Below are positions 4,131 through 40,153 of a stretch of 64,000 nt of DNA, one piece after another (within the stretch, counting starts at the first letter, position 1; every line of letters begins with the position of its first letter). Both the position numbers and the translations under genes were made by a program. This DNA is from Patescibacteria group bacterium (GTDB lineage Bacteria; Patescibacteriota; Patescibacteriia; Magasanikbacterales; UBA922): NCBI GenBank assembly GCA_018823045.1, contig JAHJIX010000017.1, forward strand, positions 52,300 to 116,299. The letters run 5' to 3'. Under the pieces are notes generated by a model. That model was not told where the DNA came from. It did no database searches and was given only the letters and a program-made list of their open reading frames with translations.

Positions 4131-4149
4131 TATACCCTATAGGGGTATA
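4131..4149. promoter_or_regulatory. Palindromic operator TATACCC-N-GGGGTATA (CsoR-type GC-core inverted repeat) upstream of the repressor-efflux operon
   Basis: Sequence tataccctataggggtata lies ~35 bp upstream of the repressor start. It resembles known CsoR operators (ATACCC…GGGTAT). Confidence 0.55.
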
Positions 4150-12451: not shown

Positions 12452-12499
12452 AGTGACATCATAGATGTCATCTTTAATTCTTATTTACAGACAATACTC

Positions 12500-12623
12500 A
12501 CGTCATTGCGAGGTGGCGTGAGCACACCGCGGCAATCCCGTTGTTAAAGAAAAACAATTGTTTTAAGACATAAACAAAGGGATTGCTGCGCCCCGTTTTA
12601 CAAGACGGAGCTCGCAATGACGT
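12500..12623. repeat. Nested-palindrome intergenic repeat element (copy C)
   Basis: ACGTCATTGCGAGGTGGCGTGAGCACACCGCGGCAATCCC…GGGATTGCTGCGCC…GCTCGCAATGACGT. It has the same outer and inner inverted pairs as copy B, with a longer AT-rich central loop. Confidence 0.85.
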
Positions 12624-12713
12624 AAAGTACTGTAGCACTCAAATTAAGGATGACAGTAATATTGTCATTATACCAAAAATAAGCTCTTTTGAGAAGAAAA
12701 AATAAGTATTATA

Positions 12714-12752
12714 AAACCCTGTCTCCGAAGAAACAGGGTTTTGTTTTTTTTG
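12714..12752. terminator. Intrinsic terminator hairpin (AACCCTGTCTCCGAAGAAACAGGGTT + T8)
   Basis: 11-bp stem followed by TTGTTTTTTTT on the plus strand. A weaker U-run is on the minus strand downstream of the TSP3 gene. Confidence 0.5.
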
Positions 12753-12885
12753 ATCTCATACCACCGAAGTGATTTGAGATACATACCACAGAGCTTTTAG
12801 GTAGCAATGTGGCTAGAGTTACGTGTGCCCTACTCACTCAAACCTAATTTTGAGTGGATCGTTGGGTAGCACTGATGAGTATTAT

Positions 12886-14805: not shown

Positions 14806-14882
14806 TACTGGTATCGTGTATGATCTTTATGCTTAAAAAGATTACTTCATATCACGATACGTTAACAAAACCAGAAACTTTT

Positions 14883-15677
14883 CTAGAACGTCCAGCCGGT
14901 AGACACACCTAAGCGTGTCGCACCGAAACCGGATTCTTGCGTCGGAACCATGGGCGGCTCTGTCCCTGCTGGGAAGAGACCGACCTGGGGGCGTTGCGCC
15001 ACCCACTCAGAATGACCGAAACCGACTTGAAGGCCGATCCGAAAACCAGAGTTAAACAGACGCTCAACCTGCAGCTCGCCCATGTGGGTCTGCAACAGGT
15101 CGCCCTCGATATCAGCAGTTTCATCCCAAATGAGAAGACCTCGATACCCAAGCGCAAAGCGCCAGGCATCGATTCCTCGATACTGGGTCCCGAGAAACAC
15201 CGAAGTGCCTCCGGGTTTGAAACCGTCCATGTAGGCCGGAGCCCACGCGGTCGTTCCACGTCCATACCAGTTCTCGGCTATGCGGAGGTTTAACTCCAAA
15301 CCAAGTTCCAATAAAAACGCGTTGTCACCGTTGTCTGGTGTGATCAAGGCCACGGGGGTTAACCCGAGTCCCCAATCCCACTTTTTCTCCAAAGTCTCAA
15401 CCCTCTTTACAATCTGAGGGTCGGCTTGTGGCGGGGGCGGAGGAACTGGACATGAAACGATTTCAGAGGCCGTCTGCTCGTCAGAGCAGATGCCCGTTAT
15501 GCGAACCTTCTTACCAGGCGCACACTCGTTTAGGTCAAGGACCTTTTCCAATACCTCTCCATCCGGACAGGTAAGCTTAACTTTCCAACTGTTTTGTGCG
15601 TTAACCGGGTTCAGCCCGGCACTGATCACGGCCAGCATGGCCGTGACGAAGAGCGCCTTAATGGTGCTCCTTATCAT
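14883..15677 (-). CDS. Outer-membrane beta-barrel-like protein (signal peptide, C-terminal …TGWTF)
   Basis: 264 aa. N-terminal signal peptide (MIRSTIKALFVTAMLAVISAGLNPVNA). Alternating amphipathic beta-strand pattern in the C-terminal half, ending in an aromatic residue (F) as in OMP barrels. Immediately upstream of the TSP3 gene (operon-like). GC-rich. Confidence 0.5.
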   Translation of the reverse strand: MIRSTIKALFVTAMLAVISAGLNPVNAQNSWKVKLTCPDGEVLEKVLDLNECAPGKKVRITGICSDEQTASEIVSCPVPPPPPQADPQIVKRVETLEKKWDWGLGLTPVALITPDNGDNAFLLELGLELNLRIAENWYGRGTTAWAPAYMDGFKPGGTSVFLGTQYRGIDAWRFALGYRGLLIWDETADIEGDLLQTHMGELQVERLFNSGFRIGLQVGFGHSEWVAQRPQVGLFPAGTEPPMVPTQESGFGATRLGVSTGWTF

Positions 15678-15727
15678 ACCAACCTCCTTGCCAGCCGTTT
15701 AGGTGGCGGGGTTTATGTGTTTGGTAA

Positions 15728-15770
15728 CTACAGGATTAAAGAAAGTATATTACTTTGCTTAATCCTGTAG
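15728..15770. repeat. Perfect 12-bp inverted repeat CTACAGGATTAA…TTAATCCTGTAG with a palindromic 19-bp loop, in an AT-rich spacer inside the GC-rich island
   Basis: Direct reading of both arms. No T-run follows. Confidence 0.6.
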
Positions 15771-16026
15771 TCCAAATACAATTGGTAGATATGATGTATA
15801 TTAGTTTAATACTCATCAATTGTAATGATCGATTTAGGATGTGTTAAATCCTCAATCATCATTTAACTTGTCATAAGCATAAATGATGATAGTTGGATCC
15901 TCTATACAAGAAAGTATAGAGGTTAAGGCTCATCTAATAGTTGATCTACGTTGTGGACGTAATTCAATTATATAACGATGCTATCACGCGCCTTGAGGTG
16001 AGTGTGATAGTATTTGAAGATAGAAA

Positions 16027-17004
16027 TTAGGGAATGTACTCCGTCTCCAAACGGGGACGAGCACGAGCAGTCCTTCGACTGTCTCCTAATGATGTGGGGT
16101 TGGAGGCCGGAGCAGGCTTCTTCGCCTTGGCGACGGCCTTATTCTCCTTCTCCCACTTGTTGATTGAATTTTTTGTTAACCAGACACCGTGATCCTTGCG
16201 GATCTTTTTGCGGCACTCTTTGACGCTCTTGGAGGAATTTCGGCAAAGTTTGTACTCTTCCTCATGTCCCTTGGAGCGGAAAGATCGGATGGCGTAGGCC
16301 TGTTGGTTTACCTTTAAAGACAAATTCTTGAAATCATCGTCGTGATCATCTAACCGATCACTGTTGATCTTGATATCTACCCTGTTATCCTTGATCAACT
16401 TTAAATGTCCATCGAAGACGGTCTTGGCTGTTGCAAAGGCCTTATCGTGATTACCGAGACGGGTATCATGACCAGCGAGCTTCGTGTCGTGGTCGACGAG
16501 GCGAGCCTCGACGGCAGTGATACGATCATCTTGGTTATGATTCCAATCCATGAAACCGTCACGAGAAAACACCCAGACCATCGCCAAGATGAGAACTAAG
16601 ATGAGGGCCAAGACCCCCCAGAGCCAGCCTTTCCCGGTAGGGAGGTTGCTCAGGACGGCTTGGAGTCTATCTTCGCGAACGAGCTTATTGTTTGTGCGCC
16701 CGTTGTTGTTCTCGAACGTGTTCAAACGATCAGTGATGTAGGTGTCACGATCATGGTTGGCGAGCTGCGCGGCGGTCTGAACCGCGAGGTAGATCTTGAG
16801 GGCGGCGGCTTGATCGGTAGGGTCAGTGATATCCCTCTTGATCACAGCTTGCCCCTTTGAGGGATCAGCGATGATTTCGTTGAGAGCGGACTCGCTGAGC
16901 CCTGGAATGAGTTCCTTGAGTTTATCCTTCACGGTTCGTTCTTCCTTTGGCCACTGGGGCCGGCTTTTTGGTAAGCCCCAAGTACAGGGCCAGTGACACC
17001 GCAA
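16027..17004 (-). CDS. Hypothetical membrane protein (single TM, His/Asp-rich repeats HD-T-K-L-A-G-HD), GC ~52%
   Basis: 325-aa ORF. TM segment LWGVLALILVLILAMVWVF. Repeated xHDxxL motifs (VDHDTKLAGHDTRLGNHDKAF). The true start is uncertain. Confidence 0.4.
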   Translation of the reverse strand: MRCHWPCTWGLPKSRPQWPKEERTVKDKLKELIPGLSESALNEIIADPSKGQAVIKRDITDPTDQAAALKIYLAVQTAAQLANHDRDTYITDRLNTFENNNGRTNNKLVREDRLQAVLSNLPTGKGWLWGVLALILVLILAMVWVFSRDGFMDWNHNQDDRITAVEARLVDHDTKLAGHDTRLGNHDKAFATAKTVFDGHLKLIKDNRVDIKINSDRLDDHDDDFKNLSLKVNQQAYAIRSFRSKGHEEEYKLCRNSSKSVKECRKKIRKDHGVWLTKNSINKWEKENKAVAKAKKPAPASNPTSLGDSRRTARARPRLETEYIP

Positions 17005-17176
17005 CGATTGTCGCGGCAGGTTTCGGTTTTAATTTTTTTCTATCTTCAATTGTAGGGTACAGTGTTATCTGTAAAGTATATTTTCATACACTTATCATAT
17101 AACAGCACACTATAACACACTTTCAGACTTTTGTCAAGTCTTTCTGTGTGTATAATTATTTTTTGGCTTAAATAAG

Positions 17177-17211
17177 CAAAAAAAGAATCAGATATTACTC
17201 TGATTCTTTTT
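17177..17211 (-). terminator. Bidirectional intrinsic terminator (AGAATCAGATATTACTCTGATTCT flanked by A7/T5)
   Basis: 9-bp stem. U-run on the minus strand directly downstream of the 1779-aa gene. Confidence 0.65.
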
Positions 17212-17227
17212 ACTCTATTATAACTTA

Positions 17228-20200
17228 TTAACTAAAAGTATATACTGGTTTACCATTTTCAAATTTAATTCCTAGAACTTCACTTTGAGCAGCTCCATCT
17301 ACTTTATATAATTTTTCACCATCTGTTTCAAATGTATATCTGTTATCATCAATAAAGACATGTTTTCCTTCTGGTGTTAAATATTTAATTCCATGCCCAT
17401 CAGCAGATACGGCATATGGATTACTCTGATCTACAGGATCAAGTAAATTACCATATCTTGGATGCTCTAAATCACTGATATTATCTTTTAAATTAAAAGC
17501 ATCTCCTGAAGGATTGTTAAGAACTTCTTGTAATTTATCTACAATATGTTTAGCATCCTCACCAATAACATCTAATTTACTCAACATATCATTAGCTTCT
17601 TCAACAGTAGGTTCCATGTCAAAACCATCTATATCATCGCTTTGTTCAATATCTGAAGTAAGATCTTCTTGATATATATTAGCAGCATCTGCTTCAACAG
17701 CGTCAGAACTACCTGATATCTCTTGCAACTTTTGATCTATCTGACTAGAATCTATACTACCCTCATTTAATTTATTGTGAATATCTAGATGTTTATTAAT
17801 ATTTTCTTCCTCAACCAAGATACTCCTCCCCTTATATTCAGCATATATAGCATTACTCTCTGACTCAACTGTATATGCTATATCATGTCCCAATACTTTA
17901 TTGTTTCCTTGAGCATTTGCTATTAACCCCTTTAAGTTCATCAACTTGTCATGAGAATTAGATAAGCCATTAATTGTATCTAATCGTCCTTCTTCTATAG
18001 ATACATCTGCTACCACATCACTACTAACTTCTTGCTCACTAAACAAAGACTTATTGCTCACCTTTGGATGAAAAGCCTTTTTATTGGTATCGATAACCTC
18101 TCTACCACTACGTTCTACCGTTTTTACAGGAGCACCCTCTCCTGCTATAGCACCAGATCCACCTTTCGCATGTACACCAAGCGCATCTTCTCCTGTTTTT
18201 ATAGCTTCAGGCGTCATTGTTTTTTGCTTGATAATATCATCTACAAAATTACGTCTGTCTGTAGGTAAAGGATCTGTTACAAATCTCCCTTCTTCTACTC
18301 TTGGTGGGTTTGATCCTTTAAGTGCATCTAAACTTGTCTTAATAACCGTACCGCTTCCTGTCTTAATATGAACATCTCCAGTTTTTTTATCTGCCCAAAA
18401 TTCATAGCCAAAATCGTCAGATCCACTAGAAGCTGCTAATCCAGTTCTCTTACCTAATCCTTCAGGAAGTTTATCTAGCACCTCTCCACTACTTGCTACA
18501 CGTCGAAGTTCTGCAGCGGCTTGTTCATTATATTCTGTGGTATTCCACTTATCTACCTCTTGATAATTATCATCTGTAACATTAGCTTGTTGATTTGTTT
18601 CAACAACGGTTGTTTCTCCACCACCACGATGATATTCTTTTACGTTGTCAAATAGGTTAATTTGATTGTCTTCTGCAACAATATGGAAATGTGGGTTTCC
18701 TTTTGCGTCAAAAGCAAGCTGAATTTTAGCTCCTGGACGAAGGGTAAAGCCTCTCGCTTCAACTCCCCCACCAATCTTAATTTGCCACTCTTTTAATTGT
18801 GCTCTATACATTCCTTGAATATCTTTATCTGAATGACCATATCCTTCAAGAAGACGTTTCATCGCACGGATTTCTGCTCCACGGACATTATCTGCCCCCA
18901 CATCTATCTCAGCAGCAAGACGTTGCCCATCTGCATTCACTAAATTTTTATCATCAAAATAATTAACATTTGAGACCTTAGCCCCAATTTTTGGTAACTC
19001 TATAGCTGGTTTTAGCTCTGGCGTTGGTTCTGCTTGTTCTGGAGCATTTTTATTTTCTGTACTTCCTTCCTCTTGACTTTGAGTATTAGCAGAGTCTTGA
19101 TGTGTCTCTGCACTGCTTTGAGTTCCCCAATTCTTAGCAACCAATTCACCATCTTCATTATATACTCCTGTTTTTACAGATGCACCAGCTGTTTCACCAG
19201 CAGCAACCATTCTTACAGTATCCTTTGCCTCTTGAACTCCCCAACCAACTAATAAAGCAGCACCTGTACCTAATGTAGCACCAGCTAGTACCCCTATTGC
19301 TCTATATTTGAGCTTACTTTTTCTTTTTCGTGCATCAGCAGTTTCTAATACTTGCCCTGCATTTTTCATTGCACGCACACCGGCTTCTAAATTCATTTTT
19401 TGTTCAGGACTTTCAAGCAAAACGCCTTCTTTCTCTACCTCATATACTAACTGACGAATTTCCGTTAACAATAGTTTATCTCGCATGATCACTTGCTTTC
19501 CATCTTCATCTGCTTCCCAATACATTACTGCTGTCATTTCTTCTGGAGAAGCTGTTCCATGCAATAATCGTTTTAAGTATAATGTTTGCTGTTTTAATTC
19601 CTTCATCTCAGGATTCTCCTTACTAGGATCCAAAAATGCACGAAGATTATCTAAAACACTACTTACATGCGCTTTTTCTTCTTTTCTCTCTCCACTCAAA
19701 CGCATTCCTTCTGCCATACGATAGCCTGTGAGTGTTCCTGCAGCAGCTCCCATAGCCCCTCTATAGATCATACTATCAAACATAATAAACCCTGTTGCGG
19801 CAGCTCCTAATAGGATACTTACTCCTAAACTTTTCTTACCACCAAATGCTTGTAATACGTATTCTAATTTACTAATGACAATAGGATCAACAGTTCCATC
19901 TTCAATTTGTTTTTCTAAATCACCACTGAGACGATCCCCTTGATCGCGCATAACAAAAATAGCTTTTGCAAGTTGCAATTTTTTTGTTTCATTTCCAGCA
20001 TCTGCTCGTTCAATTAATTGATCAAGCATTTGTTGATATACTTTTCTTTCATCTGCAGTTAATTTTGCTAATTCTGTATCTAATTCTTTATTTCCTTCCT
20101 CTGTTCCTTGCACTTGTTCTGTAAGAGCGCGGAGTGTTTGTGACATAATTGCACCAGCCTGTTCTAAATGCTGTGTCATATCTAAAACACCATTATTAAA

Positions 20201-28342: not shown

Positions 28343-28760
28343 GGGGATGACAGGCTTCGATAGACGGCAACGTTATCTATGTATGCATACCAAGAGTGTC
28401 ATCTCTTGTAAATCAATGACAAATCGATACGTGTAAACGTTATCAGTCGAGTAAAAGGCGCTATTGCTAACGCATTTAGCATGCCACAACTCGCATCTGT
28501 TGTTGCCTAAATAAGGCTAAACGACCATCGCCATGAAGATACTCGCTATTCATATCCGCGGTGTCAACCATACAGAGTTCGTCTCTGTGAGCGAGCGTAG
28601 AATATATGTGCTGACTGACGCGTATATTTGAACTTCCATCAGTATGTAGTGTGTTTCTTTTTGATATTTTTAAAAAAGCACATGAACCAACAAAATATCT
28701 ATGTATGTAGAGTACCTAGCTAACCCGATCTAGACCCGGGTTCAATTCCCGGCATCTCCA
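28343..28760 (+). ncRNA. ssrA: tmRNA (ssrA)
   Basis: 5' end GGGGAUGACAGGCUUCGAUAGACGG matches the tmRNA 5' consensus (GGGGxUGA…GGxUUCGA…ACGG). 3' end GACCCGGGUUCAAUUCCCGGCAUCUCCA has a T-arm and an acceptor 3' strand complementary to the 5' GGGGAUG, with the G3·U pair. It lies immediately downstream of smpB. A candidate tag frame ends …GCA UCU GUU GUU GCC UAA-A-UAA (28496-28512). Confidence 0.75.
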
Positions 28761-28785
28761 CGAAAAATGGCGCTAGCTATTTTTC

Positions 28786-28974
28786 GTGTCACGTGAGCAC
28801 GAAGTGCTTTTACGTGACCAGTATAAACATACCCGTCCTAGCACGGCGCCATCTCGTGGCGAGCCAATCAAAATGATACAGCAATATTAAGTGTCACGTG
28901 AGCACGAAGTGCTTTTACGTGACCAGTATAAACATACCCGTCCTAGCACGGCGCCATCTCGTGGCGAGCCAATC
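28786..28974. repeat. Tandem direct repeat, 2 × 84 bp separated by 21 bp, each starting with a GTCACGTGAGCACGAAGTGCTTTTACGTGAC hairpin
   Basis: Copies at 28786-28869 and 28891-28974 are identical by eye. They lie immediately 3' of ssrA and 5' of a GIY-YIG gene. Confidence 0.85.
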
Positions 28975-30464: not shown

Positions 30465-30684
30465 TTATCAAAAAAACTCTCTATATTGATATATAATTAG
30501 AGAGTTTTTTTATACACTAAAAAAATAGACCACCTTTTTAACATATTGGATATAACAGATCATTGTTTATATAATACATATAATTATCCACAACACATAT
30601 ATTAAACAAAGGGGTCCCCTACTTGACAAAATGCTCATAAACTGTTATACTGGGGCATCATCAAAAATGGAAATGGTCAATATC

Positions 30685-30935
30685 ATGTTCGCACATGAGC
30701 AGGAGCACCCCCTCCTTTGCTCCTTTGCTCTGTGTGAACATCATGTTGATCAATACAATCAAACAAAGGTCTCGAGAATGTTCGCACATGAGCAGGAGCA
30801 CCCCCTCCTTTGCTCCTTTGCTCTGTGTGAACATTCTCGAGATCTATAACAATAAATGCCCACTGTATGTTCGTACATGAGCAGGAGCACCCCCTCCTTT
30901 GCTCCTTTGCTCTGTACGAACATACAGTGGGTTTT
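30685..30935 (+). repeat. Three tandem copies of a 57-bp hairpin-forming element (ATGTTCGCACATGAGCAGGAGCACCCCCTCCTTTGCTCCTTTGCTCTGTGTGAACAT). The third is extended and followed by T7, acting as the rplT operon terminator.
   Basis: Copies at 30685-30741, 30778-30834, 30867-30923, with spacers of 36 and 32 bp bounded by TCTCGAGA. The last copy sits in the stem CCCACTGTATGTTCG…CGAACATACAGTGGG + TTTTTTT. Confidence 0.8.
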
Positions 30936-31222
30936 TTTATACCCATAAAAACCTTGACAATTCTATCATATTCTAGTATCATATGCTTGTAATTTGTTAG
31001 CAAAATATATGGGACTTCGAAAGAAAAACAACCAAAAAAGATACCAACAACGATTGATTGCAAAAGCAAAAAGAAATATCAAAAAATTGAACCGTCTTGC
31101 AAAAGCAAAAACTCCCGGTCAAACACTTCACGATACAATGCATAGAAGAAAAGAGGCATAATCACTTTGCAAAAAAATAAATATATGATATACTCTTATC
31201 TATAATAAGATAAGAGGTTACT

Positions 31223-31296
31223 GGATCGGTAGTTCAACTGGTTAGAGCACCGCCCTGTCACGGCGGAAGTTGCGGGTTCGAGTCCCGTCCGGTCCG
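31223..31296 (+). tRNA. tRNA-Asp (anticodon GUC)
   Basis: Cloverleaf: acceptor GGATCGG/CCGGTCC; D-arm GTTCAACTGGTTAGAGC; anticodon loop CTGTCAC; T-arm GCGGGTTCGAGTCCCGT; discriminator G. CCA is not encoded. Confidence 0.85.
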
Positions 31297-32847
31297 CTCA
31301 ACGGAAGGCAAAGCACCCGAAAGGGTGTTTTTTGCTTTTGTTAAGCTATTTTCTGAAGTTCTAAAGCTTGTATTACGTTTCATTATCATTTCGAACGGTT
31401 TTCTATACTCTATAACTAATTTCTTATCGATAAGCTGACAGTTCGAAAGTAAATATCCAAGTAGCTCCCTTTTCTCTTCATCATTAGCCATACGGTATAA
31501 TTTAGAAGCCTTATGAGCTAATTCTAATATACCTGAACCATAACGATAATAATCAATATCAGCTTGCGTATAATTTGAAATACGACTATCTAAATCTGTT
31601 ACCTGCTCCGTATACTCATTAAATTTTCTATTATAAAAATCCTCAGTAATATTATTATCTAACTTATCCTCATAAAGTCTATCGAGACGTGTCATTAGTT
31701 TTATCTTTCTATCCTCTAATCGTTTACGTTCTCTATCCGTTGTATCACGTTTAATATCCAATGAATCTTTTAATGCTTCGGTAATATAGTCAACGGTATC
31801 TTTTGGCAATTCAATATCTTTTAATGCTTGCTCTATCTGCTCGTTAATAGCATTCTCATTAACTGGCTTTTGTGAACACTCACTCTTATATTTTGTACAA
31901 CGATAATAAACATACTCCTTACCTGAACTCTTTGTTTTCTTATCTCCCGTAACAGTTCTATGACACTCTCCACACTCAAGTAACCCTTTAAATGTAAAGT
32001 GCCTAGTCCCCCATTTGGCTTGCTTTCCTCTATTTTCTCGACTATCCAGTATATCTTGTACATTCTTCCATAATACTTTATTGATAATCGGCTCATGTAC
32101 TCCTACATGAATTTTATCTTTCCAAATGAAATCACCGTAATAAATAGGATTACGTAAAATCCTTTGAACAGAGCTTTTACTTATTTTTTTTAGTTTAGAG
32201 CTTCTCGGAAAATTTTCAGGTATAACAATACCCTCCTTATACAATTCATCAATAAGACTCTTCAAAGAATATCTACCAGTAGCAAATCTCTCAAACATAG
32301 CTATTACTAAATCTCTATTCAATTCATCTACTACAGGACCCGCCTTATCGGCTATCTTCCCCATCTTGTAACCTAACGGGGGCATACTACAAGGATATAT
32401 TCCCTGCTCTGCTTTTTGTTTGAGTCCTTTCTTTACTTCTTCACTCAAATTATCTACATAGTTTTTTGCCATCAAGACCTTAATTCCATGCATGAACTTT
32501 TGATGAGAAGAGGCTTCTTTTCCAATAACTTCATTTTCTTTAACCAAAAAAACCGTAACATCAAGCTCGTCTATCAAAACGTAATCTTTAAAGTTACGGT
32601 ATAGTCTATCCGTCTTTTCGACAAGAATTGTATTTACATCTTTGTGTGACTTTACATAGTCCACCATTGCCCCAAAATTGCTCCTACCGGAACTTTTAGC
32701 CGTCTCATCGTCCTCAAACTCCTGTACTATACTAAAGCCATTCTGACGTGCAAATTCTTTAAGTAACTTCCTCTGAGCAGGTATTGAATACCCCTCTTGT
32801 TTTTGTTCACGAGAAGATACACGTACGTAAATGACGGCTTTTTTCAT
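31258..32847 (-). CDS. Large serine recombinase (resolvase domain + recombinase domain + zinc ribbon)
   Basis: 529 aa. Begins [12 protein letters not shown]…GYSIPAQ (catalytic Ser motif) and has a Cys-rich zinc ribbon (CGECHRTV…[11 protein letters not shown]). The ORF's last ~13 codons overlap tRNA-Asp (31258-31296), so the real stop may differ. Confidence 0.75.
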
Positions 32848-33023
32848 ACTTTAGTCTTCTCTAAAAAATCAGCAAAATCTTCTGTGGAAATCCTAAACTC
32901 CTTACCTAACTTATTAGCTTTTAGCTTACCCGCTTCTATATATCTATAAACTGTCATCTTTGAAATTCTTAATTTGCTTGCTATTTCTTCAACTAAATAA
33001 AAATCTTTATCTATTTCTTTCAT
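32844..33023 (-). CDS. Small helix-turn-helix DNA-binding protein (excisionase/AlpA-like), overlapping recombinase start by 4 nt
   Basis: Manual translation: [59 protein letters not shown] (59 aa). HTH is EIASKLRISKMTVYRYIEAG. Below the ORF-track size cut-off. Confidence 0.55.
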   Translation of the reverse strand: MKEIDKDFYLVEEIASKLRISKMTVYRYIEAGKLKANKLGKEFRISTEDFADFLEKTKV

Positions 33024-33031
33024 AAACTAAA

Positions 33032-33955
33032 TTAAGTAGATAAAACTTTCTCAATTTTTTTTGCTATAGCTCGTATTACAGGTACAGCAACACTATTCCC
33101 AAATTGTTTATAACACTGTACATTACTAACAGTTAATACAAAATCTTTGGGAAATCCTTGTAGTCGAGAAGCTTCTCTTGGAGTAATCTTTCGAGGATTT
33201 TTATTTTTTTGTCTAATCAAAATTTCAGAACCATCTTTATAATACCTAGCTGACATAGTACTTGTATATGCAGAATTGGCATCAAATAGACTATATCCAA
33301 ATCCATTACCCTTTAATTTATGAGCTTCCTTTCTTCTTTTATGACCTGCCCACAATTTATCTGATATTGTATATTTTTCATCAACTTTTTCTTCTAAAAT
33401 ATCTCCTAATTTAACTTTTTTGTATGAAGGAGTTGGAAAAACAAATTCGTTATAATTTTTTACTTTCTTTTTATTAAATGCAATTATATATATTCTCTCT
33501 CTATTTTGAGGTACACCGAAGTCTTTAGCATTAAATATCTTATCAAAAACATGATAATCTAGTTTTTCTAAACTTTCTTTTACTATCTTAAAGGTATTCC
33601 CCTTATCATGTGATTTAAACCCTTTAACATTTTCTAAAAAAACTAGCTCAGGTTTATGATAAGCAATTATTTTTTCAATATAAAAAAACAATGTCCCTCT
33701 AGTATCTTGAAAGCCCTTTTTAAGACCAGCATTAGAAAAAGGCTGACAAGGAAATCCCGCAAGAATTATATTATGTTTAGGTATATCAGCAACCTTAATT
33801 TTAGTTATATCTCCATCGGGACACTCACCAAAGTTATCTTTATATGTTTGTTGAGAAAACTTATCCCACTCAGAAGTAAATACACAGTTATAACCAATTT
33901 CATCAAATGGAATTCTAATTCCACCAATGCCTGCAAATAAATCAATAAATTTCAT
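33032..33955 (-). CDS. DNA (cytosine-5)-methyltransferase
   Basis: Motif I DLFAGIGG, motif IV GFPCQPFS, motif VI ENVKG, motif VIII QNRERIYII. The start is taken at the Met of MKFIDLFAGIGG (the ORF-track frame extends to 34012). Confidence 0.8.
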   Translation of the reverse strand: MKFIDLFAGIGGIRIPFDEIGYNCVFTSEWDKFSQQTYKDNFGECPDGDITKIKVADIPKHNIILAGFPCQPFSNAGLKKGFQDTRGTLFFYIEKIIAYHKPELVFLENVKGFKSHDKGNTFKIVKESLEKLDYHVFDKIFNAKDFGVPQNRERIYIIAFNKKKVKNYNEFVFPTPSYKKVKLGDILEEKVDEKYTISDKLWAGHKRRKEAHKLKGNGFGYSLFDANSAYTSTMSARYYKDGSEILIRQKNKNPRKITPREASRLQGFPKDFVLTVSNVQCYKQFGNSVAVPVIRAIAKKIEKVLST

Positions 33956-33959
33956 ATTT

Positions 33960-34847
33960 TTATTTCCAATAATCAAGATATTTAGGAATTTCTTCAAAGA
34001 AATATTCTTCAAAACTAATTATATTTTTGCAGTCCAACAAACTGTCACTATCTGCCAATTCTTTTGAAGTCACAATAACTATATTATGCATACCCATTTC
34101 TTTTGCTTTACTACCCGCAATATGAGTATCAACCGTTAATAAATGAATTTCAGGTATTTTTGTACGTTCAATTTCTTCTGCTACTTCCTGCCATCTTTCT
34201 CTAAGACTTGTTTTCATCGTCCCTATAATAGTTTTGTTTCTTCTTCGCTTGAATTCTTCTATACTTGGTAAAACAGAATCAACTTTTTTACCAAGTCCCA
34301 CAGACTCAAACACCTTTCTTCCAACTTTTCCTTGAGAATCAAATGGATAATCTAAAATATCATATATTTTATATATAATAGCTTCAAATGTTCTACCTGA
34401 CCTCGATCTTCGTGAATTAGTATTACTTAAAGAAAGCATATATACATATGGAGCAACTCGTCCAGCATATTCTCCACATACACTATAGATAGCAACCTTT
34501 AATTCTTCACCCGTCTTATTAACAATCTCACTAGTAACTAAAAAGTCTAAAATTTTCTTAGGTGTTTCAATTCTTTTATGTAAATCCTTTAAAAGTGTTG
34601 CATTAAACTCTGCCTCCTCTTTCAAAAATAAATTATAAGCACGCTCTCTTACCTCTAATATTACCTTAGACACATCTTTATGCTCTATGATCTCTTTTGA
34701 ATAATTACCTTCATCAAAAACCTGAGCAACAAATTCATCAGATGTTCTTATAGATTCTTTTCTTGTCTTTTTTATTAAATTAGCAAATATTTCCTTCTCT
34801 GATTCAGGAACATCAATCAAACTCCTAATATCCTTATTTACATCCAT
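33960..34847 (-). CDS. Putative type II restriction endonuclease partner of the m5C MTase
   Basis: 295-aa ORF immediately upstream and co-directional with the MTase (gap of a few nt). No recognisable family motif by eye. The call rests on the R-M context only. Confidence 0.4.
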   Translation of the reverse strand: MDVNKDIRSLIDVPESEKEIFANLIKKTRKESIRTSDEFVAQVFDEGNYSKEIIEHKDVSKVILEVRERAYNLFLKEEAEFNATLLKDLHKRIETPKKILDFLVTSEIVNKTGEELKVAIYSVCGEYAGRVAPYVYMLSLSNTNSRRSRSGRTFEAIIYKIYDILDYPFDSQGKVGRKVFESVGLGKKVDSVLPSIEEFKRRRNKTIIGTMKTSLRERWQEVAEEIERTKIPEIHLLTVDTHIAGSKAKEMGMHNIVIVTSKELADSDSLLDCKNIISFEEYFFEEIPKYLDYWK

Positions 34848-34927
34848 ACTTATATTTATAAAACTTATTGATACAATATTATAATATCTACTATATCATA
34901 CTTTACAATGGTTAACAATTAGTCCTA

Positions 34928-36016
34928 TCAATCCATCCTTTGAGCTACAAATTTTAAGAGCTCTTCCTTACTCAAAGAAGCAACATTTACTCTAGTAAGG
35001 TTATTAAATGAAATTTCTTGTATTATTCTTGCCTGTTTTAGTGAGTCAATATGTCCATACCCATAACTTCCAAAAGTGGTACCAACATTTTCATGACCCA
35101 AATTTTGACTAAAAGCTTTCTTTTGTATTTCAGTAAGTGGTAATTTAGATATTTCACTCACCAACAAATTTCTAAAGGTATGAGGATGAAAATATGTTAC
35201 TCCTGCCTGCTTAAATCGCTTTTCAAATATCTTTCTCAAAGAAGTAGTACTCTTCCAAAACGTAGCTTCCACTTCCCCATTACTATAAAATCCTAAATTT
35301 TTTTTACCTACTTCTGTTTTTGTTGCAGGGAAAATAGGATCAACAGGTTTAAAACCTTTCTGCACCTCAAGATATTCTACCCATTCCATAAAATACTTTT
35401 GTGCTTTTTTGTATGGAATAGGTACAAAAACGGAAGTTATCCTTTTACTGAACTTTGTTTTTACACCCAACTTAGGATTTTGATCGATAATCATAGTCTT
35501 TTTATCAAAACACTGCAAAGACAAACTAGCTAATGCTGAGATACGTATCCCCGTTAATAAATTAAGAGAAATAAGTGCTTTATCTCGCATTTCAACTTCT
35601 GTATTACCCTCAATATGCTCTATCACCGTTTTTACTTGATCAATTGATGGAAAACTAGTATTAGTGCTTTGTGTAGCTATTCTATTTTCTGCCTTTGTGA
35701 GATTAAGATATTCTACATCTTGCTCATGTACCTTTGATTTATATCCATCTTGTTTAGACAACCACACAAAAAAAGATTTCAAATATCTTATATTATTATA
35801 GCAATAAGATAAACTCACATTACCTTCACCATGTTTCTTTTTTTTTGATTTCAACCAACTTTTGAAATCAATAGCTTTTTGTTTATTAAATAAAGCAAAA
35901 TCATCTTGAACTGAGAACTCTTCCCAAAGCCAAATTCCTTTCTCATAACATCTAATCGATTTTGTTGAATACTGCTTTGCATTTTCAAGATATACATAAA
36001 AACTTCTTATTGTCAA
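34928..36016 (-). CDS. Tyrosine-type site-specific recombinase/integrase
   Basis: 362 aa. Box I R (ALISLNLLTGIRISALASL), HxxR (HPHTFRNLLVS) and the catalytic Tyr region (GHENVGTTFGSYGY). Confidence 0.75.
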   Translation of the reverse strand: MTIRSFYVYLENAKQYSTKSIRCYEKGIWLWEEFSVQDDFALFNKQKAIDFKSWLKSKKKKHGEGNVSLSYCYNNIRYLKSFFVWLSKQDGYKSKVHEQDVEYLNLTKAENRIATQSTNTSFPSIDQVKTVIEHIEGNTEVEMRDKALISLNLLTGIRISALASLSLQCFDKKTMIIDQNPKLGVKTKFSKRITSVFVPIPYKKAQKYFMEWVEYLEVQKGFKPVDPIFPATKTEVGKKNLGFYSNGEVEATFWKSTTSLRKIFEKRFKQAGVTYFHPHTFRNLLVSEISKLPLTEIQKKAFSQNLGHENVGTTFGSYGYGHIDSLKQARIIQEISFNNLTRVNVASLSKEELLKFVAQRMD

Positions 36017-36093
36017 TATACATTATACTTTATTTTGACAAATACGACAGTCTGATATAAGCTATTACTATAATTAATAAAAAAACGAATAAT

Positions 36094-36432
36094 ATGGCTA
36101 CAATAACAATGAAACTAGAACCAAAGCCTTTTGATGCTATAAAATCTAAAAAAAAACAAATTGAACTACGCCTATACGATGATAAAAGAAAAAACATTAA
36201 TATTGGAGACATTATTGAATTTAAAAGAGAACCTGAACGAACAATATCCATTAAAACGCGGGTTGTCGCACTACTCAGATATGAAAATTTCTCAAAATTA
36301 TTTGAAGACTTTGAACCTAGTATATTTGGAGGAAATAATAAGCAAGAATTACTTGATGGTGTTACACGATTTTATTCAAAAGAAAAACAAAATGAATACG
36401 GCATACTAGGCATAAAAATAGAATTACTCTAA
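36094..36432 (+). CDS. ASCH (PUA-like) domain protein
   Basis: 112 aa. MKLEPKPFDAIKSKKKQIELRLYDDKRKNINIGDIIEF is an ASCH beta-barrel signature. Confidence 0.5.
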   Translation: MATITMKLEPKPFDAIKSKKKQIELRLYDDKRKNINIGDIIEFKREPERTISIKTRVVALLRYENFSKLFEDFEPSIFGGNNKQELLDGVTRFYSKEKQNEYGILGIKIELL

Positions 36433-36493
36433 AAAAAGAAAAAAGGGGTCCGATGAAAGACCTCTTTTAATTTATCTGGGAAGAATCCCCGCG

Positions 36494-36844
36494 CTATACA
36501 ACCTCTTCAAGTTGAAACACCAGAACTCCTAACCTCTCCTTGTTTGGTGGAAAAATCTTCCTTATGTTACGCAACTGTTGCTCCGCACTACGATACGGGT
36601 TTATTTTTTGTACATCCTCGTTAGCCAACATCTCTCTAAAGTTGTTGTACTTGCTCACACGCACGACGCGTCTATCGCAAGAACGCTGTTTACAAAGGAA
36701 GCGTACAGTATCCCCTCTCTGAATGCGCAGCAAACTACTGTATGCGACACGAACCTCCACAGTTTTTGTTCCTTCGACGATCATGTCAAAGTATTGTTTA
36801 TAGATCTGGAGAGTCCGGATCCGTTTTTTTTTCGCCATTTTCAC
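36494..36844 (-). CDS. ASCH (PUA-like) domain protein
   Basis: 116 aa. IYKQYFDMIVEGTKTVEVRVAYSSLLRIQRGDTVRF. Confidence 0.5.
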   Translation of the reverse strand: MKMAKKKRIRTLQIYKQYFDMIVEGTKTVEVRVAYSSLLRIQRGDTVRFLCKQRSCDRRVVRVSKYNNFREMLANEDVQKINPYRSAEQQLRNIRKIFPPNKERLGVLVFQLEEVV

Positions 36845-37935
36845 TCTTCCTTTCGATAGGCTTCAAGAAGCCTCATTATCTCGGTGTAGGTATAACATCT
36901 GAACATGTGCCTCGGATGACTCAAAAACTGTTGAACCAACCAAATCATCTTTGACACATAGTCAGGATGTTCTTCACGGAATTTACTCATATCTAAGAGC
37001 CAATTAGGCACATCAAACATACTACCATCATTATCTCTTATGAGAGATTTAGATAACTTAGCTCCTGTCCCCGTAATGACCTGAGGAGTAAAAAACCTCA
37101 TTGGTGTATTGACTGAGGTATAACCTAATGCACCAAGTGCCCAATCAACGGGCTGTGTGCTCATAGTCCAGTCCCCGCCTTTTACCATAACACCAAGTGT
37201 ACCATTTTCTTGACTGTAAACAGCCTCTTTTATTACATTCCTATATAATGTATTCAAATCAAGATAGGTACCATCATCACCATCGACAGAAACCATTTTT
37301 TCATAAAATCTTCCATCTCTAGCACGACACCTAAACAATACCTTGTCTTTCCCTGTATAAATAATTTTTGTATGCTCCCCCCTTTTTTGAGCATAAAAAT
37401 CATCATCAGAGTTAGGTAATCGCACTCTCAAAATACCATTTGAAGGTGCTACACACCAACGGATAACTTCTTGAAATTGCAAAGACTTGATGAATTGATA
37501 GCGAAATGAAGGCATACTTTGCTGATCTTTATAAGTAGACCAACTATATGAGATACCCACAATTTTTGCTAATTCATCAAAAAAATCTAAATAGTGCACA
37601 GATAATAAATCATGTAATTCCAAAGAGGATAATACATGACCATAGGCGCGCTGGAATTCGGTACCATCCTTCCCTTGTGTAATATCATAAGGAGCATTAT
37701 CAAGTGCTCCAAAGCAAACCTCACAAGGGATATCAAACTTTTCTTGGATCATTCCGGCGAGTACAAAACTTGTCGTCTGGACGAGATATGTACCAATGTG
37801 CGGGATACCATTAATCTGAGTACCCACTGAAAATACTACGCGCTCAGGATTTGAAATAGCAATACGAGCACCAATGAGATCAATTGCACAGTTCAAGCTA
37901 TTAGCCAAAACGGTATTTGGAGAGTGGATGAGCAT
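36841..37935 (-). CDS. Class I aminoacyl-tRNA-synthetase-like protein, catalytic domain only (HIGH-like PHIGT and KMSKS-like KLSKS motifs)
   Basis: 364 aa. GTQINGIPHIGTYLV near the N-terminus and TGTGAKLSKSLIRDNDG ~240 aa later. This spacing is typical of class I LysRS (LysK)/GluQRS-type Rossmann domains. No anticodon-binding domain. Confidence 0.45.
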   Translation of the reverse strand: MLIHSPNTVLANSLNCAIDLIGARIAISNPERVVFSVGTQINGIPHIGTYLVQTTSFVLAGMIQEKFDIPCEVCFGALDNAPYDITQGKDGTEFQRAYGHVLSSLELHDLLSVHYLDFFDELAKIVGISYSWSTYKDQQSMPSFRYQFIKSLQFQEVIRWCVAPSNGILRVRLPNSDDDFYAQKRGEHTKIIYTGKDKVLFRCRARDGRFYEKMVSVDGDDGTYLDLNTLYRNVIKEAVYSQENGTLGVMVKGGDWTMSTQPVDWALGALGYTSVNTPMRFFTPQVITGTGAKLSKSLIRDNDGSMFDVPNWLLDMSKFREEHPDYVSKMIWLVQQFLSHPRHMFRCYTYTEIMRLLEAYRKEE

Positions 37936-38124
37936 TGTTTTTCCCTTTGTTGTAGTGAACGAAACCTTTTTATTTAGATACCAGATCTAAATAACTATTA
38001 TAAAAAGGTTAGCAGATTTCCCTACTTTTGTCAACCATTTTAAAGAAACCGGAATTTTTATAATCACAGTCAATTTTGACCCAATCTAAAGTTCTAAAAT
38101 CGTCCCGTAAGCCCCGCTAATGGA

Positions 38125-38147
38125 ATATACCCCTAAATGGGGTATAT
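38125..38147. promoter_or_regulatory. Second CsoR-type operator-like palindrome ATATACCCC-TAAAT-GGGGTATAT
   Basis: Perfect 9-bp arms. Same core as the operator at 4131-4149. Located in the 383-bp intergenic region between 37935 and 38319. Confidence 0.5.
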
Positions 38148-38318
38148 TTTATTTGTGTATTGTGATATCTGAAGGTCCCGCGTGCCCCGCAATGGCTAGG
38201 ACAGATGAAGCGATAGCGAATCTGCCTAAGACATGTTCCTTCATAGATCCTGTTCACTAATAAAAAACATTTTTGTCAATCTATGCTATACTATATATAG
38301 TTAATTTTAAAAAAATCT

Positions 38319-38690
38319 ATGAACAGCAAACTCAAAACATTTTTTATGGTCATTGGAATTATTTCTACCATTGCCCTCATTATTATCATTATTGTTATTT
38401 TTGGTGTCTATAATATTATTAAAAACATGACAGGATCATATACAACAGCACCAATAAATACAGATGGAGTAAACACAGAAGAAGTCTACGATCACCCAGC
38501 ATTGTCTGAAGATCAAGAACAAACACTAGATAAACTTGGTATTGATGTCTCAACACTTCCAACAAGTATTACTCCTGAACAACAAGCCTGTGCTGTTGAA
38601 AAACTTGGACAAGACCGAGTTCTTGAAATAGTTGGCGGCGCATCACCTAGTGCTATAGAATTAGTAAAAGCAGGATCTTGTTTTAAATAA
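38319..38690 (+). CDS. Small membrane-anchored hypothetical protein
   Basis: 123 aa. N-terminal TM (FFMVIGIISTIALIIIIIVIFGV). C-terminal soluble domain with two Cys. Confidence 0.4.
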   Translation: MNSKLKTFFMVIGIISTIALIIIIIVIFGVYNIIKNMTGSYTTAPINTDGVNTEEVYDHPALSEDQEQTLDKLGIDVSTLPTSITPEQQACAVEKLGQDRVLEIVGGASPSAIELVKAGSCFK

Positions 38691-38755
38691 TACATCTTTA
38701 TACAAAAAAAATAACTGATATACTCAGTTATTTTTTATTTACACAATATTATCTA

Positions 38756-40153
38756 TTAAAACAACTTATCAATTAATACCAAACCACTAAAAAATCCAAA
38801 GAATAAGAAAATACCGATCATGACAATCTTTCTCCACCAACGTGGACGGTATGCCTTTGGTAATAGTTTGTGATTGACAACAAAGACCAACCCGACATGA
38901 ACAAACATGGCAAATGCATTAATAACAGCGGCTAAGACAAGAAGAGTCTTTGGCTCATAAATATTAAATAAAAACAAGAGAATGCCAAATCCAATTTGCG
39001 CCCACAAAAAAATATAATATAATTTGCTTAGGTTCACCGTTTCTTTTTTATCATGTTCTACTTGCTTGATTGCAACATTTTCTGCCATAATTCGAGAGGT
39101 TGAGTCCATAACCCCTAATTGTGTCTGAAATAACATAACTCCAACAACAAATAAAAAGCTGACACCTACCGCAGGGAATAATTGCGATCCAATAGCAGCC
39201 CCTTCATAGATAACAAACAGAATGCCCTCTTCTGTGCCTGTGGAGCCGTATACAGTAACATAAGCCAACAACATGAGCAAACACATAGACAAGAGCCCTA
39301 CAAACCAAAATATAAGTCCATGCTCAATACTAATCATCTTCCACCACTGATTAAATCGTGCACGATGTTCTTTATTGTCGACAAAAGAAGTCCCTGTCAA
39401 CTTAATCTTTTGAGCACCATCTTTACTTGCAAAAAGACCAGCTATCTTTTGGGCGTACTTCCCCATGCCATAGCCTTTTTCTTTTACGTAAATTGATTGG
39501 GTTAAATTTAAATTACCAGCAGCACCAGAATACGCAAATGCAGCCAAAAATGTCGCAAATGATATTCCCGCTGGGAAAAATGTATATCCCTCACCTTTAC
39601 CCATTAATCCTTGAAATAAGGTCCCCCAGTCACTTGATTGACTTAATACAATTGTAAGAACAAATACAAAAGGAACACCTATTAAAATAATCGTACGAGT
39701 AAGCCCCTCCATAAGGGTATAGACTGTTTTCCCAACAGAAAGAATAATACCAATCAATAGTAAAAAGATAATCGCAATCCACTTAAATTGTTCTACGCCT
39801 ATAATTGAACCAAATACTTGGGCAGAAGCCGCAATAATACCAGGTAAACCAAAACCGATAAATGTAGAAAAAATAAACCAATACACTGCTTTTGGAAAAA
39901 TTTTAGCAATACCAACAAAAACGCTCTCCCCTTTTACTAAGGCATAGCGCTCAATTTCCATGTTAATAAAATATTGAAATGTAATCCCTAAAAATGCTCC
40001 CCAGGCTATCCCTAAGCCATAATTTGATACCATATACGGCCAAAGGATGACTTCTCCTGACCCGAGCCCTAAAGCCAAAATAATAAAACTAGGACCAATA
40101 AGTTGTTTAAAGGGAACCGGTTTTGGAAATACTTTTTTTGATTGTTTTTTCAT
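38756..40153 (-). CDS. Polytopic membrane transporter, Nramp/APC-superfamily-like (putative divalent-metal transporter)
   Basis: 465 aa, ~11 TM helices. N-terminal LIGPSFIILALGLGSGEVILWPY resembles the Nramp GPGxL…DPGN region. Confidence 0.4.
   Translation of the reverse strand: MKKQSKKVFPKPVPFKQLIGPSFIILALGLGSGEVILWPYMVSNYGLGIAWGAFLGITFQYFINMEIERYALVKGESVFVGIAKIFPKAVYWFIFSTFIGFGLPGIIAASAQVFGSIIGVEQFKWIAIIFLLLIGIILSVGKTVYTLMEGLTRTIILIGVPFVFVLTIVLSQSSDWGTLFQGLMGKGEGYTFFPAGISFATFLAAFAYSGAAGNLNLTQSIYVKEKGYGMGKYAQKIAGLFASKDGAQKIKLTGTSFVDNKEHRARFNQWWKMISIEHGLIFWFVGLLSMCLLMLLAYVTVYGSTGTEEGILFVIYEGAAIGSQLFPAVGVSFLFVVGVMLFQTQLGVMDSTSRIMAENVAIKQVEHDKKETVNLSKLYYIFLWAQIGFGILLFLFNIYEPKTLLVLAAVINAFAMFVHVGLVFVVNHKLLPKAYRPRWWRKIVMIGIFLFFGFFSGLVLIDKLF

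Follow-up and report, generated by a model that had tools for sequence, protein, structure and literature searches.

The window analysed here, a 64,000-nt stretch of contig JAHJIX010000017.1 from a Patescibacteria group bacterium, very probably contains a 6,820-bp integrative element at 31298-38117, one member of a family that occurs in Magasanikbacteria and other Patescibacteria. By comparison with relatives, which set its boundaries, we read it as a real integrated element, namely a serine-integrase island that targets the end of a tRNA gene and whose own attachment site, attP, is embedded in an open reading frame (ORF). The anatomy of the element, its presence/absence polymorphism, the attachment (att) motifs common to the family and the existence of a junction of the attP form were each observed directly. 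Relatives are cited by L codes (L009, L089, L101 and so on), which denote the loci or contigs compared with the window. The features on which the argument turns are these, LSR standing for large serine recombinase and HTH for helix-turn-helix:

31223-31297, plus strand: tRNA-Asp(GTC), found by ARAGORN and Rfam (64.4 bits); the host target gene
31294-31297, plus strand: predicted crossover core CCGC of attL, the last 4 nt of the tRNA, with the B arm to its left and the P' arm to its right
31298-31342, plus strand: P' arm of attL, with a terminator-like hairpin at 31310-31331 (terminator scan); inside the 3' end of the LSR gene
31258-32847, minus strand: LSR, 529 aa; PF00239 (4-149), PF07508 (181-270), PF13408 (286-343)
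32844-33023, minus strand: HTH_17/excisionase-family protein, 59 aa; HTH_17 E 7e-13, TIGR01764 excisionase E 2e-13
38079-38117, plus strand: attR, made up of the P arm (38079-38113) and the core CCGC (38114-38117)
38118-38153, plus strand: B' arm, with a stem-loop at 38119-38153 (terminator scan: 15 pairs and a T run) that contains the perfect palindrome 38125-38147

The Resolvase, Recombinase and Zn_ribbon_recom domains identify the recombinase as a three-domain LSR; it matches the PHROG integrase family phrog_95 (E 1.7e-82) and, weakly, CcrA/B/C and XisF. A first-pass annotation of this DNA had reported that its ORF runs antisense into the 3' half of tRNA-Asp, which is correct: the frame passes the hairpin at 31310-31331, and its last 13 codons and TGA stop then lie antisense to 31258-31297 of the tRNA (40 nt), with the stop opposite the anticodon loop. 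LSR homologues number in the thousands (5,947 matches), and those with 56-61% identity in L091/L092, L095 (beside lgt) and L098 overlap tRNA-Asp with the same TGA stop. These overlaps stand in different host neighbourhoods, and the same target is thus used in unrelated surroundings. Among viral contigs the only LSR relative was one distant match at 24% identity. The gene for the 59-aa HTH_17 protein does overlap the LSR start by ATGA, as had also been noted, and is present in every family member examined; the protein is a candidate recombination directionality factor or regulator.

The host locus was examined by comparing 80 loci around infC homologues. The infC relatives of the window are Candidatus Magasanikbacteria, and the closest locus, L009, shares 77% identity in IF3 and 89% in L20. 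L009 has the order infC-rpmI-rplT-orf55-tRNA-Asp, then an Nramp gene and orf171 0.9 kb further on. Its DNA similarity to the window reaches 31297 and restarts at 38765, and between these flanks lie 863 bp of unrelated DNA in L009 and 7,467 bp in the window. L009 carries none of the eight element genes, so that the element is present in the window and its genes are absent from the same locus in the relative. The tRNA-Asp gene is conserved in L009 with compensatory changes; uninterrupted in the window and meeting the element only at its last 4 nt, it would remain wholly host-encoded after integration. Collinearity with L009 on both sides, together with the tRNA-Asp overlaps in three other host contexts, upholds the earlier proposal of an element integrated at tRNA-Asp, and L009 provides the empty tRNA-Asp site that the proposal called for, though one with 863 bp of its own. 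The GC content of 0.28-0.31 at 33-36 kb, below the surrounding 0.35-0.38, also speaks for an element of this kind. Nor do relatives keep these genes at tRNA-Asp in conserved synteny, the eight being absent from L009 and only distant LSRs (24-27% identity) lying near tRNA-Asp in two of the other 79 infC loci, L016 and L053. In L016 (11735-13163) the distant LSR abuts or overlaps tRNA-Asp, and likewise in L053 (19941-20422); the hosts are another Magasanikbacteria metagenome-assembled genome (MAG) and a Uhrbacteria MAG.

A contig of GCA_018814165.1, a Patescibacteria MAG, is near-identical to the window and differs by a few mismatches and one repeat unit. The LSR, HTH_17 and tyrosine recombinase ORFs are intact in both assemblies, and the restriction endonuclease gene of the element also reads through without stops in the second. 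The gene calls of GCA_018814165.1 are shorter (LSR 295 aa, nuclease 159 aa) though the DNA reads through; mutation was considered as their cause and rejected, the DNA being open throughout and the short calls being annotation choices.

The distal boundary is fixed by a motif common to the family. A 29-nt sequence, ACGGGACGATTTCAGAACTCTTGATTGGG in the LSR sense, occurs once per element, at the far end, in six of six elements (the window, at 38108-38080, L089, L091, L094, L095 and L098), with 1-4 mismatches, and is always preceded by GCGG, five variable bases and a host-specific hairpin. The P arm of the window matches the family consensus at 26 of 29 positions. With this motif at 38080-38108 and the core at 38114-38117, the element ends just before the palindrome, where the first-pass annotation had expected it to end. 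The attR region as a whole is homologous to the distal ends of L089, L091, L094, L095 and L098, and the stretch 38079-38120 is similar to both L089 and L091 at their far ends. At the tRNA end of the element, the P' arm is near-identical in L089, whose LSR is 79% identical, and the LSR stop falls within tRNA-Asp in L092, L095 and L098.

A possible free form within the family is the contig L101, in which the LSR 3' end is directly joined to the far-end motif (TGGCGG-GGACT-GCGGGAC-GACTTTAGAACTCTTGATTGG), an arrangement that we read as the attP configuration. The tail of P0164 is similar to that of L101, and the P0187 junction in L099 is similar and more degenerate. When attB (L009), attL and attR (window) and attP (L101) are compared, CCGC is the one block found in all four. 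Next to it, attL has a pentanucleotide of the tRNA type (CCGGT), whereas attR and attP have pentanucleotides of the element type (AAGCC, AGTCC), which places the probable crossover 3' of the pentanucleotide, within CCGC at 31294-31297 and 38114-38117. A shared CCGC alone, with no long direct repeat, is the short core expected for a serine integrase. On the right-hand side of the core the regions of attL and attR are also alike, each with a spacer, a hairpin of the CCC/GGG type and then a run of T; none of 300 shuffles attains the alignment score of 36. This likeness fits P' and B' as right half-sites followed by terminators.

Within the P arm, GTCCCGT (38102-38108) and AAGCC (38109-38113) form with the core a 16-nt mimic of the tRNA 3' end. 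Our first model placed the crossover inside GTCCCGT and took attR for a decayed host tRNA end; it was discarded, as L101 shows the pentanucleotide to be element-borne. L101 shows the tRNA-like 16 nt at 38102-38117 to belong to the P arm of the element, which we read as imitating the B arm. The first-pass annotation had looked for a direct repeat of the tRNA 3' end as attR and had found none by eye. A long repeat of this kind is indeed absent from the window, where no copy of the tRNA 3' half with three or fewer mismatches exists besides the tRNA itself (two 21-22-mers); the expectation of such a repeat gives way to a core of only ~4 nt. An ungapped search of 31400-39000 for the tRNA end returned chance-level scores (131 of 200 shuffles were as good), and a repeat search of the window found only promoter-like and AT-rich chance pairs. 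For the window element, the predicted attP junction joins ...AGTTCTAAAATCGTCCCGTAAGCCCCGC to TCAACGGAAGGCAAAGCACCC... (in longer form CTAAAGTTCTAAAATCGTCCCGTAAGCCCCGC to TCAACGGAAGGCAAAGCACCCGAAAGGGTG), and the predicted attB junction joins ...GTCCCGTCCGGTCCGC to TAATGGAATATACCCC... (in longer form GGGTTCGAGTCCCGTCCGGTCCGC to TAATGGAATATACCCCTAAATGGGGTATAT).

Two further observations concern the att sites. At the LSR end of L089 (11545-11600) no more than the last 25 nt of tRNA-Asp are left, and unrelated DNA with a complete type I restriction-modification (R-M) system follows (11780-19371); the tRNA gene is therefore cut short in L089, at a locus where a defence island seems to be building up. 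In the window a second, degenerate att-like motif, GTCCCGCGTGCCCCGCAATGG, lies 72 nt beyond attR (38175-38195, plus strand); it is weak, its score in a local alignment to the attR motif being reached by 4 of 500 shuffles, and may be what remains of an earlier integration at tRNA-Asp. As a source of this motif L009 was not significant (200 of 500 shuffles).

We propose that the LSR would insert the element at the extreme 3' end of tRNA-Asp by a crossover within its last 4 nt (CCGC). With the crossover so placed the tRNA would stay host-encoded, and its terminator alone would be shifted, to 38119-38153 at the distal end. The attP site would overlap the 3' end of the LSR gene. When integrated, the LSR ORF would cross attL into the tRNA antisense and stop opposite the anticodon loop, at the TGA; the free attP form would instead lead it into the P arm and give it a different C-terminal tail, predicted to read ...ERGLRDDFRTLDWVKIDCDYKNSGFFKMVDKSREIC. 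The 16-nt imitation of the tRNA T-stem and acceptor strand in the P arm (GTCCCGT-AAGCC-CCGC) would reflect a need for the same protein domains to recognise the left half-sites of attB and attP. We infer catalysis by the LSR, the exact crossover dinucleotide (most likely the non-palindromic CC), a role of HTH_17 as directionality factor and a present ability of the window copy to excise.

The tails of LSR homologues fall into two kinds, tRNA-antisense or a translation of the far-end motif (...DW-RGLRDDFRTLDW...). The T-arm antisense peptide [DEG][SL]N[PSLQR] occurs in the last 30 aa of 62 of the 120 best LSR homologues, as compared to 0/120 and 1/120 in two control families. In L096 (9001-10656) an LSR 43% identical to that of the window lies on an integrative and conjugative element (ICE) with an F-type type IV secretion system, and its frame covers the full length of a tRNA-Pro(GGG) gene (10561-10637) in the antisense direction. 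The tail statistics and the tRNA-Pro overlap suggest a cross-phylum LSR clade specialised for tRNA ends.

The remaining backbone gene and the R-M genes of the window copy are:

34928-36016, minus strand: tyrosine recombinase (TyrRec), PF00589; a backbone gene
33960-34847, minus strand: type II restriction endonuclease of the Ecl18kI/PspGI/EcoRII-C kind; PF09019 E 1.3e-14, PADLOC REase_II
33032-33955, minus strand (likely ATG start; a TTG-started ORF extends to 34012): 5-methylcytosine (m5C) DNA methyltransferase, PF00145 E 4e-106

TyrRec homologues occur across Patescibacteria at 52-82% identity, and TyrRec, HTH_17, an R-M system or nothing, and LSR are found together in all five contexts examined (the window, L094 with a JGI contig, L095, L097 and L098), which makes TyrRec a backbone gene of one element family. 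L094 and the JGI contig (TyrRec 82%) have the order HTH_3, M78, 57 aa, 134 aa, TyrRec, HTH_17, EcoO109I-type nuclease, m5C methyltransferase and LSR (529 aa). L095 has a 134-aa protein, TyrRec, two ORFs, HTH_17 and LSR, with no R-M recognised; L097 has 133 aa, TyrRec, 61 aa, HTH_17 and LSR, with no cargo; L098 has 139 aa, TyrRec, HTH_17, a type III R-M system and LSR. The order in L089/L090 (LSR 79%) and L091 (LSR 61%) is HTH_3 repressor, M78 peptidase, small ORF, Phage_CRI-type Rep, X, HTH_17, R-M and LSR. The Rep gene occupies the TyrRec position where TyrRec is absent (L089, L091), and from these gene orders TyrRec appears to be interchangeable with a Rep module. The backbone would then consist of a regulation/replication module, TyrRec or Phage_CRI-type Rep, HTH_17, a swappable R-M slot and LSR; it is conserved in L089, L091, L094, L095, L097 and L098, and its slot holds a BglII-type, EcoO109I-type or type III system or no R-M. 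Element size is ~6.8-10.6 kb (two copies with both ends mapped).

The window copy differs from its relatives in two respects: its R-M genes stand between TyrRec and HTH_17, whereas those of relatives stand between HTH_17 and LSR, and at its far end a trio of genes, for an aminoacyl-tRNA synthetase (aaRS)-like protein and two ASCH proteins, replaces the ImmR/ImmA-type regulatory module. Of the eight genes in 31258-37935, seven are on the minus strand and ASCH1 alone is on the plus strand. On the 50.7-kb contig L099 (1-21440) an LSR end enters degenerate P-arm-like sequence, and two Phage_rep_O modules and many defence genes (GmrSD, DUF2130, AAA_15/21, DndB) stand in succession; L099 may be a tandem array of LSR elements.

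Several observations weigh against this account of the locus. The window copy is without the ImmR/ImmA and Rep modules of its relatives and, with these regulatory and replication genes missing, may represent a derivative that is in decay or not autonomous. The empty site in L009 is not clean, as its own 863 bp attest, and the alignment of L009 to the right flank of the window is marginal, with a score reached by 16 of 300 shuffles. The divergence of the LSR between hosts (61% identity) resembles that of IF3 (63%), so that long vertical residence with occasional loss is possible. Neither the circular junction nor the empty site of the window element was recovered; exact scans of metagenome and viral collections for the predicted attP junction and for the P arm gave 0 matches, a weak result in that the collections miss even the P-arm pattern carried by L098 (JGI contig). 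The P and P' arms are without obvious dyad symmetry, by inspection only.

These points lend some weight to the alternative that the locus holds a fixed, immobile remnant, an old LSR element inherited vertically that has lost its regulation and replication genes and would by now be no more than a variable island of the chromosome; the integration origin would still hold. Besides the near-equal LSR and IF3 divergence and the missing free form of the window copy (from weak scans), it is favoured by the loss of the 57-aa and 134-aa genes along with ImmR/ImmA and Rep, and by the degenerate relic at 38175-38195, which suggests an old, much-used locus. It is opposed by LSR, HTH_17 and TyrRec ORFs that are intact in two assemblies, by a P arm that keeps 26 of 29 consensus positions, by the lack of the element in the closest relative, and by the existence of attP-form junctions in the family. 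We regard a fixed remnant as possible but rather doubtful, and prefer an integrative element.

The palindrome at 38125-38147 starts 8 nt beyond the core, in the B' arm that we read as host-derived, and occupies a terminator-like position ~170 nt upstream of orf123 (38319-38690). The first-pass annotation had recognised this palindrome and had called it the second of two CsoR-type sites; the palindrome exists as described, and the CsoR-type reading has become less likely than that of a displaced terminator. The first such site is presumably ATACCCTATAGGGGTAT (4132-4148), 37 nt upstream of the start of an 84-aa CsoR/RcnR-family repressor gene (3841-4095, minus strand). A functional CsoR operator at 38125-38147 would account for arms, ATACCC/GGGTAT, identical to those of ATACCCTATAGGGGTAT, for the occurrence of just two such sites in 64 kb against 0.01 expected, and for the Nramp metal transporter ~600 bp downstream. 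It is nevertheless unlikely, since the spacer is 2 bp longer at 38125-38147, the terminator scan rates the site as an intrinsic terminator that has a T run, each of the six family members carries a different CCCC/GGGG hairpin of its own at precisely this place relative to attR, and in L009 a plain terminator directly follows tRNA-Asp. The palindrome is most likely the original tRNA-Asp terminator, which on this comparison would have been displaced by 6.8 kb.

The first-pass annotation had taken the two recombinase classes as a sign of nested elements or a composite. In such an arrangement a second small element, with TyrRec as its integrase, would have carried the R-M genes into an LSR element, and two features of the window are in its favour: the low GC content of 0.28-0.31 at 33-36 kb, against 0.35-0.38 in the surroundings, covers exactly TyrRec and the R-M genes, and the R-M genes adjoin TyrRec upstream of HTH_17 and not, as in relatives, between HTH_17 and LSR. 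Nesting is made very improbable by the presence of HTH_17 and LSR downstream of TyrRec in 5/5 contexts, including L097, which has no R-M, and L095, in which none was recognised; by the absence of att-like repeats flanking TyrRec and the R-M genes; and by the Phage_CRI-type Rep that takes the same position where TyrRec is absent. We therefore retain a single element with TyrRec in its backbone.

The methyltransferase and nuclease genes, 4 nt apart on the same strand, make up a type II R-M system, with a nuclease from a known type II family of the PD-(D/E)XK class. The methyltransferase also matches M.HhaI (E 4.5e-73) and PADLOC MTase_II, and the best match of the nuclease among solved structures is R.Ecl18kI (E 2.8e-28), with PspGI at E 1e-5. 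Similarity to Ecl18kI, PspGI and EcoRII points to a probable specificity of the CCNGG/CCWGG type. This system and the aaRS-like and ASCH genes both lie inside the att-bounded segment, and the further genes that the first-pass annotation had listed (m5C methyltransferase, putative restriction endonuclease, TyrRec, two ASCH proteins and an aaRS-like protein) is all present. The trio comprises:

36094-36432, plus strand: ASCH protein 1, 112 aa; PF04266 E 4.6e-9, phrog_19935 E 6e-22
36494-36844, minus strand: ASCH protein 2, 116 aa; PF04266 E 3.8e-11, phrog_19935 E 3e-22
36841-37935, minus strand: class-I aaRS-like catalytic-domain protein, 364 aa; phrog_35625 'tRNA synthetase' E 4.7e-84

Both ASCH proteins combine the ASCH fold with the octapeptide (catalytic Lys and Glu/Thr) of the N4-acylcytidine amidohydrolase type, read from the sequence by the motif definition of bioRxiv 10.64898/2026.02.27.708502: KKKQIELR in ASCH1, with the catalytic Lys and Glu kept, and GTKTVEVR in ASCH2. 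The ASCH2 gene overlaps the stop of the aaRS-like gene by GTGA (verified). The aaRS-like protein is closest to class I lysyl-tRNA synthetase (LysRS) and has the Rossmann catalytic fold with a HIGH-like PHIGT and a KMSKS-like KLSKS motif, the hallmarks of class I. It has 364 aa against 508 for 1irx, with 276 residues aligned, and no anticodon-binding domain. There was no sequence match in Pfam, NCBIfam or PDB, nor any match of the family profile to PDB sequences; only fold comparison gave a match. Lacking an anticodon-binding domain and membership of a synthetase family, the product is aaRS-like and not an aaRS. No PADLOC defence-system model matched the aaRS-like protein, ASCH1, the LSR or TyrRec, and ASCH2 gave a marginal match to PDC-M11B (E 0.0012).

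The aaRS-like family has at least 592 members in bacteria of the Candidate Phyla Radiation (CPR), in Actinobacteria and in an actinophage. The HIGH-like motif is kept in 120/120 of the best homologues and KMSKS in 115/120. Actinobacterial members join the aaRS-like part to an ASCH domain at the C-terminus of a single protein, and GxKTxExR is retained in all 59 fusions. PHROGs includes both the aaRS-like and the ASCH families, and Streptomyces phage Picard carries the pair immediately next to its serine integrase. Unaccompanied by recombinases, the same trio also occurs in unrelated chromosomal contexts of other Patescibacteria (L005/L006, L008). That the trio consists of ordinary host genes adjoining a shorter element that ends near 36050 would suit these contexts and a GC content of 0.36-0.38 that matches the host, but is very unlikely given the family-wide P-arm/attR motif beyond the trio (38080-38117), the lack of the trio at this locus in L009, and carriage of the pair by a mobile genome, beside the Picard serine integrase.

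A 2026 preprint (bioRxiv 10.64898/2026.02.27.708502) reports the removal of N4-acetylcytidine (ac4C) from tRNA by ASCH proteins, and mentions the aaRS-like TmcAL as a writer of ac4C from acetate and ATP. By analogy, and speculatively, the LysRS-like enzyme might activate a carboxylate or an amino acid by adenylation and pass it on to cytidine or another RNA or nucleoside amine, with ASCH perhaps as its binding, proofreading or erasing partner. The whole could be a so far undescribed ATP-dependent acylation system, possibly an N4-acyl/aminoacyl-cytidine writer with a built-in eraser or proofreader, which mobile elements and phages would carry for tRNA manipulation, defence or counter-defence. 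We offer as tentative only, and on balance doubtful, a joint reading of the element in two parts: (a) a cross-phylum LSR clade of tRNA 3' ends with an ORF-embedded attP, and (b) a LysRS-like protein and ASCH as an RNA or nucleoside acylation system. In part (a) the LSR would have two tails, one integrated (tRNA-antisense) and one free (P-arm-encoded, ...RGLRDDFRTLDW...), and this contrast might give the enzyme an intrinsic sensor of integration state or a cue to directionality.

Other features of the window were seen in passing. A small, strongly basic 55-aa ORF 5' of tRNA-Asp (30994-31161) is conserved in L009 (74%) and L020 (54%), and so is probably a real gene. Between rplT and orf55/tRNA-Asp, 30672-30937 holds three tandem units of ~90 nt, each with an internal palindrome around GAGCAGGAGCACCCCCTCCTTTGCTCCTTTGCTC; GCA_018814165.1 has one unit fewer, so that the copy number varies, and comparable units are present in L009. 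Two perfect 84-nt direct repeats (28786-28869 and 28891-28974) lie directly 3' of the tmRNA gene (28343-28761). A block at 12886-17004 has a GC content of 0.48-0.62, that of the genome being ~0.36, and looks like DNA from a high-GC donor. It encodes a secreted 639-aa protein (12886-14805, minus strand) dense in thrombospondin type-3-like calcium-binding repeats (DxDxDGxxDxCDNCP...), and also holds ORFs at 14883-15677 and 16027-17004.

Mobile elements of Patescibacteria (CPR) are little described. A compact element with defined att sites and a swappable R-M slot offers a concrete route for the exchange of defence genes among reduced genomes, and a tRNA-end serine-integrase clade with a ~4-nt core would add conserved, predictable targets to the LSR toolbox. 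The embedded attP raises the idea of C-terminal tails that depend on integration state. Intact catalytic motifs and carriage on mobile elements make the aaRS-like/ASCH module a candidate for new RNA-modification or defence chemistry. In the main text of a large LSR survey (PMC10083194) the word tRNA does not appear, and a limited literature search, which is no proof of novelty, found no paper describing this Patescibacteria element family.

Among known systems, the LysRS-like protein can be set beside class I LysRS and aaRS-like ligases with no tRNA-charging activity (BshC, MshC, GluQRS; TmcAL), from which it differs in having no anticodon-binding domain and in being always paired with or fused to ASCH; TmcAL was not among its 60 best structural matches. 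The closest parallel to the cargo is gp28-gp29-gp30 of phage Picard, where an aaRS-like protein (41% identical over its full length) is followed by an ASCH 'RNA-binding protein' beside a serine integrase. Picard, in contrast, is a 39.5-kb tailed temperate phage with a single ASCH gene and with no R-M or TyrRec in the stretch read. The HTH_3 repressor and M78 peptidase at the far end of the relatives recall the ImmR/ImmA regulation of ICEBs1, a module that the window copy has lost.

In its integration, the element shares with tRNA-targeting tyrosine-integrase islands (P4-like and ICE types) a position beside a tRNA 3' end, presence or absence between relatives, and defence cargo. It differs from them in having no 15-45-nt direct repeat of the tRNA end, in an integrase that is a serine recombinase, and in a tRNA 3' end that the element has not replaced with its own copy. 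With serine-integrase prophages and islands (phiC31, Bxb1, A118 and the CcrAB of SCCmec) it has in common the three-domain LSR, a very short core and an integrase gene at the end of the element. SCCmec, which CcrAB inserts at the 3' end of rlmH/orfX, leaves that conserved gene functional, like the window element. The window element departs from all four in targeting a tRNA end, the textbook habit of tyrosine integrases, in an attP inside the integrase ORF whose tail varies with integration state, and in the TyrRec of its backbone. The archaeal integrases of the SSV1 type also have attP within the int gene, and their integration alters the ORF. The attachment site of the window likewise overlaps the integrase coding sequence; here, in contrast, only the last ~12 or more codons change, the gene is left unsplit, and the enzyme is a serine and not a tyrosine recombinase.

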